Assembly (NCBI GenBank): GCA_963677745.1
Contig: OY782391.1
Span: 1,024,001-1,088,000, forward strand
DNA: 64,000 nucleotides
Origin: Candidatus Altimarinota bacterium
GTDB lineage: Bacteria > Patescibacteriota > Gracilibacteria > UBA1369
Direction: 5' to 3'
A program made the translations under genes and the position numbers. Below, in pieces: positions 26,314 to 30,549 of the stretch. The number at the start of each line of letters is the position of its first letter. Position 1 is the stretch's first letter. The notes beneath the pieces were generated by a model, which did no database searches, had not been told where the DNA came from, and saw only the letters and a program-made list of their open reading frames with translations.

Positions 26314-27006
26314 TCAGATATTTCCGTCAATCCAAAATTCCATTTTCAGATAGGGACCGCTGGGTGTCAGACAGAGGCAGAATATTCCGGCCTGCCCGAG
26401 CAGGTTTTGCAAACAAGCCATCATTGACGGGAGATTTCTGACATAGCCGGTGGTTTTGATTTTATCGGCAGTGCGTTGCTTGAGTCTCAGTCGGGTCCGT
26501 TTAGTCATTATACTGCGGGTGATGGCCAGAAAATAGGTTTGGGCCAAATTTTCGTCATCTATATCGGGAGGCACATTCACCTTGAATTCTGTGGTCGCAA
26601 CCGATTCAATCCTTTTTTCCGAATTGGAGTCGTATTCATACCAGGGTTTTCCGATGTTGGCATTTTCTTCGATCAGATTGTTAATGCCCAGTACCAGCGT
26701 ACGGTAATCCAGTCTGGCCGTGGACAGATCTGTCGGCTGCCCGGCCTCTTCTGCAGTCCTTGATGATTCTTTCTCCGCTCCGTCGAGCAGTTCAAAAAAA
26801 ACTTCCTCGTTTTTCGTAATCAGTTTTAAAGAGATACCGTCCAGGTAACATAGCTCTTCCCGAAAATTCAACTTCAACCGGTATTTTTGGCCGTTTTTGC
26901 TGTTTAAGACCCACAATTCTTTGGAAGGATCATTCTTCAACAGGGGGGTCAGAGTCAAGCCGTTGATTCCTTTGGAGGCGCTCCCTCCCATCCGATCCAG
27001 GCTCAT
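26314..27006 (-). CDS. Hypothetical protein
   Basis: Long ORF, probable ATG at 27006 (MSLDRM); divergent from the ncRNA candidates. Confidence 0.65.
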   Translation of the reverse strand: MSLDRMGGSASKGINGLTLTPLLKNDPSKELWVLNSKNGQKYRLKLNFREELCYLDGISLKLITKNEEVFFELLDGAEKESSRTAEEAGQPTDLSTARLDYRTLVLGINNLIEENANIGKPWYEYDSNSEKRIESVATTEFKVNVPPDIDDENLAQTYFLAITRSIMTKRTRLRLKQRTADKIKTTGYVRNLPSMMACLQNLLGQAGIFCLCLTPSGPYLKMEFWIDGNI

Positions 27007-27085
27007 GATGAACGTTAAAAATATTACTGAAAATACTATAACCCGAAAGTACAAAACAATTCAAGAAGGTGTACACAGCAGTAAT

Positions 27086-27113
27086 TTGCCTAAAAGAAAA
27101 TATTTGATAAGAT
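27086..27113 (+). promoter_or_regulatory. Sigma70-like promoter for RNA candidate 1
   Basis: TTGCCT-16 nt-TAAGAT, just before the first stem. Confidence 0.5.
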
Positions 27114-27117
27114 ACTT

Positions 27118-27510
27118 TGAAGCTTGGATTTAGGAAAAACAAAAACAAAACATACCTCCTACCAATTTGCTTCACCCGCCCCGCATTATGCCGGGCAACC
27201 CGACGGAGCTAGAAACCGTCGCGACAGAGGGAAGCCTCCAAAACAAAAATGCTCCTTAAAAAATAATTTACCCGAGTCAGAAGAAGTCATAAAAACTTCT
27301 GCCAACATCTCTTCCGACGCCAAACTTAAAAGATTGTATCTTTGCAGGGTTCCATGGAACACTCTCGGACAATCATCAATAGTTCACAGGGAAGAAAGTT
27401 TACGGCAACAAGTTAAAGAAAGCTTCCAACACTCATCCCGGTAAATTATTCCAGGGCAAACAGACACCTCATGGAACCCGACATCTAAAGTCGGGGTATT
27501 TCCATGTTTT
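27118..27510 (+). ncRNA. Candidate large structured ncRNA 1 (~390 nt), family unknown
   Basis: Many complementary segments, including the 11-bp AATAATTTACC/GGTAAATTATT; A-rich loops; terminal hairpin followed by TTTT. Confidence 0.55.
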
Positions 27511-27578
27511 GACAAGAAGTCAAAAATCTTACAAAGTATATTTCACAACCATGACAGAGGGCTGTCCAGACTCGTTTC

Positions 27579-27606
27579 TTGATTAATAAATTCTATCAGT
27601 TATAAT
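27579..27606 (+). promoter_or_regulatory. Sigma70-like promoter for RNA candidate 2
   Basis: TTGATT-16 nt-TATAAT. Confidence 0.7.
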
Positions 27607-27611
27607 GTTAT

Positions 27612-28072
27612 GATTTTTCCAATAAAGAAAAATCGAAACCAAAGATCTTTCACAAAAAGAATTAGACCTATCGCCCCCCGGGGGCGGTAACGTGAAGATT
27701 GATGAGGCGTCAAAGCGGTTGCCTTTAAAACAAAAATAAAAAGGAAAAACAACGCCCTAGAACGTTTTGGCATCTCTCAATCTTTGCTGGGCGCTGGATA
27801 CTTGTCTCCGACCGGATTAGTATCCGTTCAAAGTTACTCGGTGGGGTACTTTAGCCTTTATGGCTTCTACCTTCACTACCGGCCTTTACTGGTTGGCGGG
27901 TGGTCCGTGGCAGGACTGGAAAAAACAGCCAAAGCCTAGGCATAGATTAGGACTGGTCAATCCACAAATCTCGAAAACAAAAACAAAATTGCTAGAGTTC
28001 TCACCAATATTTTATTTTTGAGGACCCATTAGCACAAGAGATTTGGAACCCCTACTTCGGTAGGGGTTTTTT
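27612..28072 (+). ncRNA. Candidate large structured ncRNA 2 (~460 nt), family unknown
   Basis: Lies between a promoter and a terminator, contains no ORF of 60 aa or more, and has dense nested stems with G.U pairs polarised to the plus strand. Confidence 0.7.
28047..28072 (+). terminator. Intrinsic terminator with cUUCGg loop
   Basis: AACCCCTAC-TTCG-GTAGGGG-TTTTTT; U-tract on the plus strand only. Confidence 0.85.
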
Positions 28073-28570
28073 AATGTAGGAAGTTGACTGGGTTATATGC
28101 AGATCTGTGTTTATTACCTCCGATATCGCCTTATCCAGGTATATCTCGCCCACCGCTTCCGGATATTTCTGACCGGGGACGTCTTTGTAATAGGCGGGTC
28201 TGGTCCATTTTTTAATTTTAGCTTTAAAATCTGCAATATCCAACACGCCCCGATTGTCGCTGCACATCAGCATCACAATAATCCAGCGGCGATATTCAAA
28301 AATGATCCGTTGGGGATCATCGATCGGCAGTTTTTCATATTCCCTGGAGCGGTCCGCCAGATAATTTAGGAGGTTCATCATGTAGGAATAGGCCTCCCTG
28401 GTGGGCTCCATATACAGGACTCGCAGGGGGTTTTTGAGATCTTTGCTGGAATCGGCAACATATGTAAATAAATGGTCATTACAGATGTCTTTGGGAGGCA
28501 GGGAAGCTTTTATTACTGGAAGATCAGCCACTTTTGGGTTTTGCTCATATCCGGACACTGGCAATTTCAT
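28052..28570 (-). CDS. Hypothetical protein
   Basis: 172-aa ORF with an upstream minus-strand TTGACA-17-TACCCT promoter; its stop codon lies inside the plus-strand terminator. Confidence 0.7.
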   Translation of the reverse strand: MKLPVSGYEQNPKVADLPVIKASLPPKDICNDHLFTYVADSSKDLKNPLRVLYMEPTREAYSYMMNLLNYLADRSREYEKLPIDDPQRIIFEYRRWIIVMLMCSDNRGVLDIADFKAKIKKWTRPAYYKDVPGQKYPEAVGEIYLDKAISEVINTDLHITQSTSYIKKPLPK

Positions 28571-28698
28571 ACAAATAATTTAAAAATTTTGCATCAAAAG
28601 GGTAAACACGGACGGACAAGATGTCAATACTTGCCAGCAAGTCAAATTAATTGACAATTTAAAAAAGTTTGATTTGATATACGCAGCTTAAAAATCTT

Positions 28699-30549
28699 AT
28701 GCTCGACCTGCCAAAAGACAATCCCAGGGAACTGCCCAGTGCCGAATTTGCTCCGGAAATTGAGCGTGAGGCCCAAATGGCAGTTTTGAGAAGTCAGCAG
28801 ATTGATGAGCGAATTCCGGTTCAGGGGTTTACGCTTGACGCCATGGAATCCAAAGATTTGGATGATGCCATTTGGCTTGAGCGGTCCAACGGAGAATGGA
28901 GAGTGTTGGTCACTATCAGCGACGTGGACGCCCTTGTTCCAATGGGCTCTCTGCTCGATCGCGAGGCTGTTACAAGGGTAACCAGTCATTATTTTCCTGA
29001 GAGAAGCAGGGACGGTAAGGTAGAGCCAAAATATGTTATCCCAATGCTTCCCACCATTCTTTCGGAAAAGCACCTTAGCCTTCAGGAAGGGGAGTCCCGT
29101 CTAACACTGACGGTTGAAATGCTTCTGACGGGAGATTTCCGGCCGATTTCGGCAGACATAAAACGTACCCGTCTTGTTTCCGCCAAAAAGCTGGGACTGA
29201 GCGAATATGGCGATCGTAAAATTATTGGAGATCCCGGCCTGCCTCTGCGGGATTATTATCATATGGCCAAGGGGTTAAACCACAAACGCTGGTCCGACCC
29301 CGGTTGGGCCTACCAGGAATTAAAGAACGGAATCAGCACCAATGAAGACGGTATGGTGAGGGAAGGAAGCCTGTCTGCTGCCAGTCTGATCGTACAGGAA
29401 TTCATGGTCTTGACCAATCAGGCCGTGGCAGAACTACTCAACAGAGAAAATTTAGCGGCTCCCTTTCGAAATCATTTGCCTGCCAGAAACTCTCCCCCGA
29501 CCAAAGCACAGATCAGGGCGGAAATTGAAAGAAACAGCGATTATCGCAAGCTGGTTGATGATTTACGGGCAACTTATCAGAAACTTTTGGGAAGCGCTTT
29601 GTACGAAGCTGCTCCGGCCGGTCATTTCGGCCTGGGGATACCTGCCTATACGCATTTTACTTCTCCCATCCGCCGCTATGCCGACCTGGTCATTCATCGT
29701 ATTGTAAAAGCCCACTTATCCGGAGCAAAGTCTCCTTATACTCCGGAAGAAATTCAGCAGCTTTGTCTTTATCTGAATAAGCGCAACCGTGACCTGGCCA
29801 CGATCAGGGCTCATCAGGAAAGAAGACATTCATTAAAAAACTACCGCCAATTCGGGCACCTGCTGCCCAAGGAAAAAGAAGACGGGCCGGATTATATGGA
29901 AAGCTTACTGACATATTTAAGAGACAATCGCATTGGCAATGCGTTCTTTGAGTACTCCTGCAGCGAAGGGTTCCTTATTCAACTTTCCTGCAAGGCCAGT
30001 GTGCGCTTTCAACGCATCAGACACGTGGTGGAAGTCACGGCCAGAGCTGCCTTACAGGACGTGAAAAACGAGGCTGCCCGTTTGTTACTGGAGAAAATCC
30101 AGGAATTGATGGAGGCAAACCCGCCGGAACAAAAGAAAAAAGATTTGAAGTATCAAAAATCGCCGGAATCTCCCGAAACCGGACCGGGTGTGGTTGCACG
30201 CCTCTATCAATACTGCGAAGAGCATGGTTTTCCGGTTCCCAGTATTTATTATGAATCCTGGAATGGCGGTCTCTTTTATAACAAAGAAACAGGGGAATAT
30301 TCGGTTGCCCGGGAACCGGGATGTGAAAAACCTCCGGATGGAGAAGAAATGGATCAAAATCTGGTTCCCATAGTTTGTCATTGCGATATCAGCGCATCTC
30401 TGACTATGGATGGATTTGGACGAAACCGCCAGACTGCCAAGGAAGAAGCCGCCAGGAAAATGCTGGACTATTTGCAGTCGGGCCAGCCCATTCCCAGGCA
30501 GTCTATTGTTCCACCGGCTCCTCCTTCCCGGCCGAAAAAAAACGATTAA
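28699..30549 (+). CDS. RNB-domain (RNase II/R family) exoribonuclease with two C-terminal dsRBD-like domains
   Basis: DAMESKDLDDA, QEFMVLTN and HFGLG..YTHFTSPIRRYADL motifs; C-terminal ..VKNEAARLLL and GFGRNRQTAKEEAARKML. Confidence 0.88.
   Translation: MLDLPKDNPRELPSAEFAPEIEREAQMAVLRSQQIDERIPVQGFTLDAMESKDLDDAIWLERSNGEWRVLVTISDVDALVPMGSLLDREAVTRVTSHYFPERSRDGKVEPKYVIPMLPTILSEKHLSLQEGESRLTLTVEMLLTGDFRPISADIKRTRLVSAKKLGLSEYGDRKIIGDPGLPLRDYYHMAKGLNHKRWSDPGWAYQELKNGISTNEDGMVREGSLSAASLIVQEFMVLTNQAVAELLNRENLAAPFRNHLPARNSPPTKAQIRAEIERNSDYRKLVDDLRATYQKLLGSALYEAAPAGHFGLGIPAYTHFTSPIRRYADLVIHRIVKAHLSGAKSPYTPEEIQQLCLYLNKRNRDLATIRAHQERRHSLKNYRQFGHLLPKEKEDGPDYMESLLTYLRDNRIGNAFFEYSCSEGFLIQLSCKASVRFQRIRHVVEVTARAALQDVKNEAARLLLEKIQELMEANPPEQKKKDLKYQKSPESPETGPGVVARLYQYCEEHGFPVPSIYYESWNGGLFYNKETGEYSVAREPGCEKPPDGEEMDQNLVPIVCHCDISASLTMDGFGRNRQTAKEEAARKMLDYLQSGQPIPRQSIVPPAPPSRPKKND

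Follow-up and report, generated by a model that had tools for sequence, protein, structure and literature searches.

The stretch of DNA analysed here (the window, 64,000 nucleotides (nt) of contig OY782391.1 from a Candidatus Altimarinota bacterium) belongs to a closed genome of 1,335,835 bp, referred to below as G000. On the plus strand, at positions 27612–28072, it carries a unit that is very probably a real structured non-coding RNA (ncRNA) whose family is absent from Rfam. The ncRNA gene sits in a gap of 1 kb that separates two genes of the minus strand (26314–27054 and 28052–28570), and had been singled out in a first-pass annotation, made from the letters alone, as a possibly undescribed large ncRNA with its own promoter and terminator in a bacterium of the candidate phyla radiation (CPR). 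The guess at the organism agrees with how the nearest relatives of G000 by valyl-tRNA synthetase (ValRS) are named, as Candidatus Peribacteria or Peregrinibacteria. Relatives of the element were compared in alignments of 10 (A1), 19 (A2), and 8 (A7) sequences.

The 463-nt plus-strand transcript folds at −151.5 kcal/mol (z = −5.22, with 0/100 dinucleotide shuffles as good), compared with z = −2.36 for the minus strand of the same stretch. Many of its G-U pairs are invariant, for example pair 237–252, which is G-U in 19/19 sequences; such pairs would read C-A on the opposite strand, and thus support a plus-strand gene, as had been argued from the G·U pairs seen in the single sequence.

The structure tested against the relatives was hand-built, and was controlled both by sliding the pairing partners and by 500 shuffles. 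In the core plus 3′ domain (80 pairs, 19 sequences), 87.4% are paired compared with 32–45% when slid, and compensatory changes occur at 49 pairs compared with 19–26 in the controls, a level that 0/500 shuffles reach. The central domain by itself (44 pairs, the same 19 sequences) is 86.1% paired compared with 29–43%, with 29 compensatory pairs compared with 9–17, and 0/500 shuffles reach any of these measures; in 47 family members the figure is 88.0% compared with 29–44%, in an alignment fitted to a covariance model and hence biased towards it. The 5′ hairpin GAUUUUUC/GAAAAAUC and the long arm, both drawn already in the first-pass annotation, together comprise 32 pairs that are 88.3% paired in 10 sequences, compared with 43–53% when slid, and 9 of the pairs are compensatory. 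Stretches of 40 nt are near-invariant across genera in both A1 and A2.

The helices proposed earlier for the rest of the molecule hold as well, with one exception. Supported in the tested structure are GGAUACU/AGUAUCC, GUGGGGUA/UACCUUCAC with AGCC/GGCU, CCGGCC/GGUUGG, and GGUCC/GGACU and, further downstream, CAAAUCUC/GAGAUUUG, UGCUA/UAGCA, and GUUCUCA/UGAGGAC; the repeated AGGACTGG does indeed occur twice, at 27912 and 27949. The exception is UGGGC(G)/(C)GUUCA, which is 81% pairable, a value that 464/500 shuffles match, and has covariation below the shuffled mean; CUGGGC pairs instead with GCCUAG at 27934–27939 to form Pa (92% paired, 4/6 pairs compensatory). The hairpin UAUCGCCCC/GGGGCGGUA (P2) stands in the G000 fold, but is specific to G000 and not a feature of the family: at the same place in A1 the relatives have, by eye, an unrelated hairpin-forming sequence of another length. 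In the 3′ domain, P3′ encloses the single-stranded block AAAACAAAAACAAAA and two stacked hairpins (27991–28033).

Two tertiary contacts were missed by the earlier drawing. One is an H-type pseudoknot formed by the loop of Pf, in which a C-G pair becomes U-A in genome G006, while in G004 the column opposite a U holds a gap, with an A next to it; an A-rich linker, GGAAAAAACA, runs between the two strands. The other is a loop-loop helix between the loop of Pb and that of a small hairpin downstream of the central domain. It is 94.7% paired and reads GACC/GGUC in 12 of the 19 sequences, GACU/AGUC in three, AACC/GGUU in one, and GACU/CGUC in two (3/4 pairs kept), with the last sequence out of register. 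Because the two loops are complementary to each other, the contact is on paper as possible in trans as in cis, and it may form within one molecule or between molecules.

Table. Features of the ncRNA gene (window coordinates; paired percentages and compensatory changes from the alignments of relatives)
Feature	Position	Strand	Remark
Conserved block upstream of promoter	27509–27578	+	Near-invariant columns 459–520 of A7 (8 sequences)
Promoter (−35 TTGATT, 16-nt spacer, −10 TATAAT)	27579–27606	+	Top promoter-like site in 26800–28800, 10/12 matches
P1, 5′ hairpin GAUUUUUC/GAAAAAUC	27612–27634	+	77–80% paired, 3/8 pairs compensatory (U-A to C-G)
Single-stranded AAUUAGAC	27660–27667	+	Near-invariant in A1
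P2, variable hairpin UAUCGCCCC/GGGGCGGUA	27669–27689	+	Minimum-energy fold
P3, long arm	27692–27787	+	24 pairs, 90.7% paired, 6 compensatory
A-rich block, copy 2 of direct repeat D1	27727–27741	+	Apical region of P3
Invariant box AACGCCCUAGAAC	27750–27762	+	Apical P3; invariant in 10/10 (A1) and 15/19 (A2)
Central domain	27787–27939	+	Closed by Pa (27787–92/27934–39)
Pb	27796–27825	+	Loop GACC at 27810–13
Pc	27836–40/27897–901	+	Central domain helix
Pd	27841–27876	+	Central domain helix
Pe	27879–27896	+	Central domain helix
Pf	27902–27917	+	Central domain helix
H-type pseudoknot	27908–27931	+	Pf loop UGGC (27908–11) with GCCA (27928–31), 100% paired
Small hairpin, kissing contact	27950–27963	+	Loop GGUC (27955–58) with Pb loop GACC (27810–13)
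3′ domain	27965–28045	+	P3′ CAAAUCUC (27965–72)/GAGAUUUG (28038–45); helices 87–92% paired
A-rich block AAAACAAAAACAAAA, copy 3 of D1	27974–27988	+	Inside P3′
Intrinsic terminator AACCCCUAC-UUCG-GUAGGGGUU, then U run	28047–28072 (stem-loop 28047–28068)	+	Covarying stem

The RNA is framed by signals of its own. The promoter read in the first-pass annotation is the best such site in its surroundings, and its columns align with TTGATT/TTGCAT…TATAAT/TATGAT/TACAAT in 8/10 sequences of A1; the 5′ limits of the remaining two were guessed. Transcription would then start near 27612. A second type of copy, carried by many related genomes (see below), has TTGAC…TAnnAT equally distant from the RNA. The conserved block upstream holds an inverted repeat, TTGAC-N5-GTCAA (27509–27523), and CTGTCCA (about 27560–27568), while GTCCA-N10–11-TTGA is seen by eye also upstream of second-type copies in other genomes; the block may serve as an upstream promoter element or as the site of a regulator. 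Before the −35, a T-rich extension, TTTCTTGA(C/T) (window 27564–27584), is common to the promoter-like sites of the 23S and 16S rRNA genes (genome about 139853 and about 146000, both on the minus strand; n = 3, by eye), and the 23S site additionally has GTCCA ten bases further upstream. A genome-wide promoter class of the form GTCYA-N9–13-TTG…-TAnnnT was considered and rejected: its 7 matches in the genome compare with 5–14 in shuffles, so the pattern defines no promoter class and only the resemblance to the two rRNA promoter-like sites remains.

At the 3′ end, the proposed terminator with a UUCG loop is confirmed by the relatives, with changes on both sides at 8/9 stem pairs (A1 and A2), and stem plus T run present in 18/19 sequences of A2. 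A consensus terminator scan of the region does not list 28047–28072, probably because the stem reaches into the U run, and support for the terminator thus comes from the comparison with relatives. The stop codon of the minus-strand open reading frame (ORF) of 172 amino acids (aa) at 28052–28570 lies within the terminator stem; the two genes are convergent and the hairpin is common to both.

No protein gene accounts for the unit, as had been claimed. Three ORFs of 51–57 codons lie in the region, none with a Pfam match. The 53-aa frame at 27860–28021, whose conservation would have spoken for translation, is open in only 1/10 aligned homologues, the other nine having stops and/or frame shifts, and the ATG is not conserved; the 51-aa frame is open in 3/10, and the minus-strand frame of 57 aa is stop-free in 2/9 readable homologues (one has an N), with a start codon only in G000. 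Among the homologues, the lengths of insertions and deletions are not divisible by three, and substitutions respect the base pairs.

Outside the helices, the most conspicuous element is a recurring single-stranded A-rich block, AAAACAAAAAYAAAA. It occurs 69 times in sense and once in antisense in 46 family regions, a density of about 2.6 per kb compared with 0.019 per kb per strand genome-wide (~140-fold), and at least one block is present in 42/46 regions. By the strict pattern there are one to three per RNA, in places that vary between the 5′ region and the arm loops and that almost always include the 3′ domain. In G000 a direct repeat, D1, has three A-rich copies in 27000–28200. A sequence related to the single-stranded AAUUAGAC, UUUGACAAUUAGAC, is found in second-type copies. 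The box GCCCUAGAA was also considered as a repeated genomic signal and rejected, its 5 genome copies comparing with about 10 expected by chance for a 9-mer. A 15-mer of the invariant box, AACAACGCCCTAGAA, recurs once in the same sense at G000:C1:1289357–1289379, where it is intergenic, flanked by a tRNA gene and a gene on the minus strand, just past a hairpin.

Homologues that covary are found in many CPR genomes. By blastn the element occurs once in G000 and is present in 29/61 relatives (G000 included), and a profile built from the first ten sequences (nhmmer) finds the full core in 20/20 fetched loci. Two covariance models were made, R1 of the central domain (148 positions, 33 pairs) and the shorter R2 of the pseudoknot region (39 sequences). 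R1 matches 64/151 sampled genomes of the order, 31 of these 64 with two unlinked copies, and R2 matches 72/151, with matches in families f1 (21/22), f9 (13/13), f17 (19/21), f13 (5/9), f4 (4/10), and f19 (4/11). Outside the order, among about 135 sampled genomes of the class, R1 has 3 matches and R2 has 6, four of the latter weak (E 0.002–0.004); the sole out-of-order genome inspected, G231, looks genuine and has the family hallmarks. G000 itself reaches 142.4 bits (R1) and 75.3 bits (R2), by construction, since it was among the sequences used to make the models; independent members score 36–143 bits.

The two paralogue types share the promoter (TTGAC…TAnnAT), the 5′ hairpin, variable arms, and the central domain, as well as a hairpin with a UGGUCA loop, the closing helix around the A-rich block, and the terminator; P3′ reads AAAUUCC/GGAAUUU in second-type copies (by eye). 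No second copy was found in G000 with R1, even with the filters off. In one genus (L152 and L158; genomes G051 and G063) the two copies are in tandem on the same strand, about 2.7 kb apart, and in other genera they are far apart. As a working definition of the family we take helices Pa–Pf, the pseudoknot UGGY/RCCA, the loop-loop contact GAC(Y)/(R)GUC, an A-rich block inside P3′, and a promoter and terminator of its own, all of which the G000 RNA has. A phage or plasmid origin was rejected, there being no match in 50,697 phage records. A scan with an 18-mer returned 3 viral and 115 metagenome stretches; in the 83 of these that were examined the central domain is present in only one, L208. The three viral stretches are without it, and the matches other than L208 are attributed to chance.

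Expression of the ncRNA is only indirectly supported. Seventeen RNA-library rows contain small shares of the words of the stretch (0.04–0.15), and four of them, from four studies, were examined. Each of these four metatranscriptome runs has one contig of a relative (167–237 nt, with 11–16 differing letters) within 27804–28033, and one contig extends on both sides into family-like sequence. One of the four libraries was primed with oligo-dT; the internal A-rich blocks could explain the presence of the RNA in it.

Rfam 15 (4227 covariance models) gives only two tRNAs in the whole window. With E values up to 10, region 27300–28300 has seven chance-level matches of 10–24 bits, compared with gathering scores of 39–100. 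This search, suggested in the first-pass annotation, hence yields no family match at the ncRNA. ARAGORN finds no tRNA and no transfer-messenger RNA (tmRNA) in 26500–29000. The universal RNAs with which the unit might be confused are elsewhere in the genome: RNase P RNA at genome 405247–405740 (RF00010, 170.5 bits, 494 nt; none in the window), tmRNA at 701797–702237 (RF00023, 105.7 bits, 441 nt), and a 6S-like RNA at 602254–602414 (RF00013, 41.1 bits, just under the cut-off; none at the ncRNA). The earlier statement that the unit lacks the signatures of RNase P RNA, tmRNA, and signal recognition particle (SRP) RNA is thus borne out. Both RNase P RNA and tmRNA are enlarged in G000 (494 nt for a model of 367 positions, and 441 nt for one of 374).

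SRP RNA was not detected anywhere in G000 (RF00169, RF01854, and RF01857, whole genome, E up to 1–10), nor was RF00169 in any of 61 genomes of the order. The Ffh M domain (PF02978) and the SRP-type GTPase (PF00448) have no match in G000 either, and PF02978 is over the cut-off in 0/151 genomes of the class. A search for the SRP GTPase in the order gave only partial P-loop matches of at most 23.6 bits in 23/61 genomes, two of which, on inspection by eye, resemble RadA and a Mur ligase. In a passage of PMC8080830, two SRP subunits are reported absent in many CPR bacteria, so the loss of SRP is already known, at least in outline.

Literature searches, which did not cover supplements or subscription journals, found no description of such an RNA, and the portion of a genome paper on the class that we consulted does not mention one (PMC4736985). 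With no match in Rfam 15, an RNA that falls outside the known families compared below, covarying homologues in CPR genomes, and no description found, the suggestion of a possibly undescribed class of large ncRNA stands, and we class the RNA, with high confidence, as the founder of a new large structured ncRNA family.

Immediately upstream, and in tandem with the ncRNA, is another conserved non-coding element (window 27100–27510, plus strand). It contains the features listed next, and it is probably the one that the first-pass annotation called ncRNA 1: a promoter-like TTGCCT-N17-TAAGAT near 27090–27118 (by eye), a terminator-like hairpin at 27473–27496, and the same AAAACAAAAACAAAA block at 27136–27150. 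Its fold has z = −4.21, blastn finds patches of it in eight related loci (L002–L008 and L018), RNAalifold gives weak covariation (8/33 pairs), and it has neither an Rfam nor an R1 match.

The neighbouring ORFs p246, p172, and p449 are present in close relatives only and have no Pfam family. The next plus-strand gene begins 630 nt downstream of the ncRNA unit, beyond the convergent gene; this gene (28699–30549) encodes an exoribonuclease that has an RNB domain and, at its C-terminus, a weak double-stranded-RNA-binding motif. The exoribonuclease adjoins the ncRNA in four among the first 20 loci, G000 included, which is too few to argue a link. A linked protein partner was sought by clustering ORFs of at least 90 aa from 43 family loci and was rejected, since the recurrent neighbours are, by eye, housekeeping genes that depend on paralogue type and clade.

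As the best overall explanation, and with moderate confidence, we propose that this is the gene of a stable trans-acting ncRNA, of an uncatalogued family of about 400–480 nt, that acts as a ribonucleoprotein (RNP) scaffold or decoy. The scaffold or decoy mechanism taken on its own is a more tentative proposal. In it, the rigid core would be a scaffold that holds out the conserved single-stranded A-rich blocks and the GCCCUAGAA box, and a partner that binds single-stranded RNA would bind these displayed elements, in which case the RNA would work as an RNP scaffold or decoy in the manner of the protein-titrating CrcZ, CsrB, and 6S RNAs. The most concrete candidate partner would be the 30S subunit's platform for mRNA binding (ribosomal protein S1). 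Upstream of 1213 ORF starts in G000 (crude starts, each the first ATG of a long frame), the frequency of G between −14 and −1 is only 0.11–0.16, and the 30 hexamers with the highest enrichment include no word of the GGAGG type; as a rough picture, the genes of G000 appear to be without a Shine-Dalgarno signal, their leaders G-poor and A/U-rich. A shortened S1 and frequent loss of bS21 are reported for the group in a passage of PMC9297842. Taken together, the A-rich blocks, the AACGCCCUAGAAC box, the leaders without Shine-Dalgarno signal, and this report lead us to propose, tentatively, that the rigid core would offer single-stranded platforms to an RNA-binding partner, of which S1 on the small subunit is the most concrete.

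A number of observations weigh against this explanation. R2 finds no copy in families f6 (0/22), f15 (0/16), and f3 (0/8), which means either that the RNA is dispensable or that the models miss divergent forms. The contigs in the RNA libraries derive from relatives and show neither ends nor strand, and carry-over of DNA could explain them. No partner was found, and Hfq was not found in G000. The gene neighbours are ordinary synteny, differing by clade and paralogue type: a holin-family protein and the RNB exoribonuclease in G000 and, by eye, an exonuclease/helicase, an M23 peptidase, a CofE-like protein, MscS, or CarA in other clades. The words enriched before start codons are A/T-rich (AAATAA, TAAATA) and not of the A/C pattern of the RNA, so that mimicry of start sites has compositional support only. 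Structured RNAs in general often have unpaired stretches rich in A, which could be no more than linkers, and the core is more elaborate than a simple decoy needs.

Ranked next, though we consider it unlikely, is an architectural or catalytic RNA that acts by itself, in which GACC/GGUC would join molecules into dimers or closed multimers, or the core would be a ribozyme or ligand-binding fold. Loop-mediated multimers are reported for other ornate bacterial RNAs, the loops here are complementary, with contact in trans as possible on paper as in cis, and no partner gene is linked. The H-type pseudoknot with its A-rich linker and the covarying loop-loop contact are tertiary locks of the kind found in compact functional folds, and the near-invariant stretches of 40 nt across genera fit equally. 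The present data, however, do not distinguish cis from trans, there is no signature of a cleavage site, no known ribozyme or riboswitch family in Rfam 15 matches, and the RNA is not phage-carried, with 0 in 50,697 phage records and only the three viral 18-mer contigs without a central domain. Quite improbable is a regulatory RNA that pairs with mRNAs or stable RNAs through GCCCUAGAA, AAUUAGAC, and the A-rich blocks. Invariant unpaired boxes do exist, and the 15-mer AACAACGCCCUAGAA occurs once more in the genome, intergenic beside a tRNA gene and in the same sense; however, nearly all of the 90 complementarities of at least 13 nt are low-complexity and A-rich (by chance, 435 words would give about 17), the 10-mers that could pair with the rRNA operon are likewise A/T-rich, Hfq was not found, as noted, and a 460-nt RNA whose core is locked does not resemble small RNAs of the seed type.

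That the unit is a strongly diverged version of one of the universal RNAs (SRP RNA, 6S RNA, tmRNA, or RNase P RNA) has very little probability, although a divergent SRP RNA was for a time our leading idea: the SRP slot in G000 is empty, and CAGGACUGGAAAAAACAGCC resembles the helix-8 motif of SRP RNA. It was rejected since the Ffh and FtsY domains are absent, leaving nothing for an SRP RNA to bind, and the helix-8-like stretch forms a covarying pseudoknot rather than a GNRA-capped helix; the other universal RNAs are found at their own loci, ARAGORN finds none here, and two paralogues per genome would be unusual for RNAs of this kind. The least probable reading is that the unit is the mRNA of a small protein or a leader that acts in cis on a neighbouring gene. 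The three short ORFs speak for the former, but they are broken in most homologues, are without a Pfam match, and lie where indels ignore the reading frame and substitutions keep the pairing; a leader is difficult to reconcile with a terminator of the unit's own and with a next plus-strand gene that lies behind a convergent one.

The scaffold or decoy explanation can also be taken further, in a form that we hold to be a long shot: the ncRNA could supply the RNA subunit of a housekeeping-grade machine specific to the lineage (RNP or RNA-only) that would act on the translation apparatus and dock on the small ribosomal subunit through start-site-like A-rich platforms. If this were true, it would have arisen in CPR bacteria of the Peregrinibacteria type, a lineage from which the entire SRP pathway and initiation led by Shine-Dalgarno sequences have disappeared, and would be a new core cellular RNA beside RNase P RNA, tmRNA, SRP RNA, and 6S RNA, with two specialised paralogues in many genera.

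To our knowledge, large RNAs with a complex fold are rare, and nearly all of those solved proved to be a ribozyme, the core of an RNP, or a global regulator. The ncRNA described here bears such marks, with about 80 supported pairs, a pseudoknot, a long-range loop-loop contact, invariant stretches, and an rRNA-like promoter, and its hosts have genomes of 1.0–1.5 Mb, in which little is kept without need. It provides a defined, testable transcript of ~460 nt in a lineage that so far cannot be cultured, and would add a family to RNA catalogues that are, as far as we know, poor in CPR-specific entries.

Among known systems, the closest in appearance are the large ornate RNAs (OLE, ROOL, GOLLD, and the raiA motif). 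These too are stand-alone genes of several hundred nt with no linked protein that explains them, with many covarying helices and tertiary locks, long invariant unpaired stretches, and a distribution restricted to certain lineages. The RNA of this study differs from them in its CPR host of the Peregrinibacteria type, in not being phage-borne, in its one or two chromosomal paralogues, in the recurring AAAACAAAAAYAAAA, and in having no match in Rfam 15. The protein-titrating RNAs CrcZ/CrcY, with A-rich CA motifs, and CsrB/RsmZ, with GGA, are likewise RNAs of about 400 nt with their own promoter and terminator, and they share with the family several copies of a short unpaired motif that vary in number and position among homologues. 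The sole echo of the A-rich loop in Rfam is in fact a partial match to CrcZ (RF01675, 10.2 bits compared with a gathering score of 95). Unlike these decoys, however, the present RNA has a large, rigid, and highly conserved core and only one to three copies of the motif, and Hfq was not found in its host (PF17209, 0 matches in G000; no search for Crc was made).

The likeness to housekeeping RNAs is more general. With SRP RNA the ncRNA shares the character of a stable, housekeeping-grade, single-copy-like RNA in a genome where the SRP slot is empty, and it differs in matching none of the three SRP RNA models, in a host with neither Ffh M domain nor SRP-type GTPase, and in that the look-alike motif is a pseudoknot. 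It is like tmRNA in size, in H-type pseudoknots, and in A-rich single strands, but is without tRNA-like ends or a tag frame and ends in a terminator, the genuine tmRNA being elsewhere. Like 6S RNA it may be compared with abundant stable regulatory RNAs, and some bacteria hold two 6S paralogues; its fold, however, is multi-domain and not a long interrupted hairpin with a central bubble, and RF00013 matches another locus. The ncRNA thus at most works like the motif-displaying decoys of the CrcZ/CsrB type and looks like the ornate large RNAs, being a member of neither.

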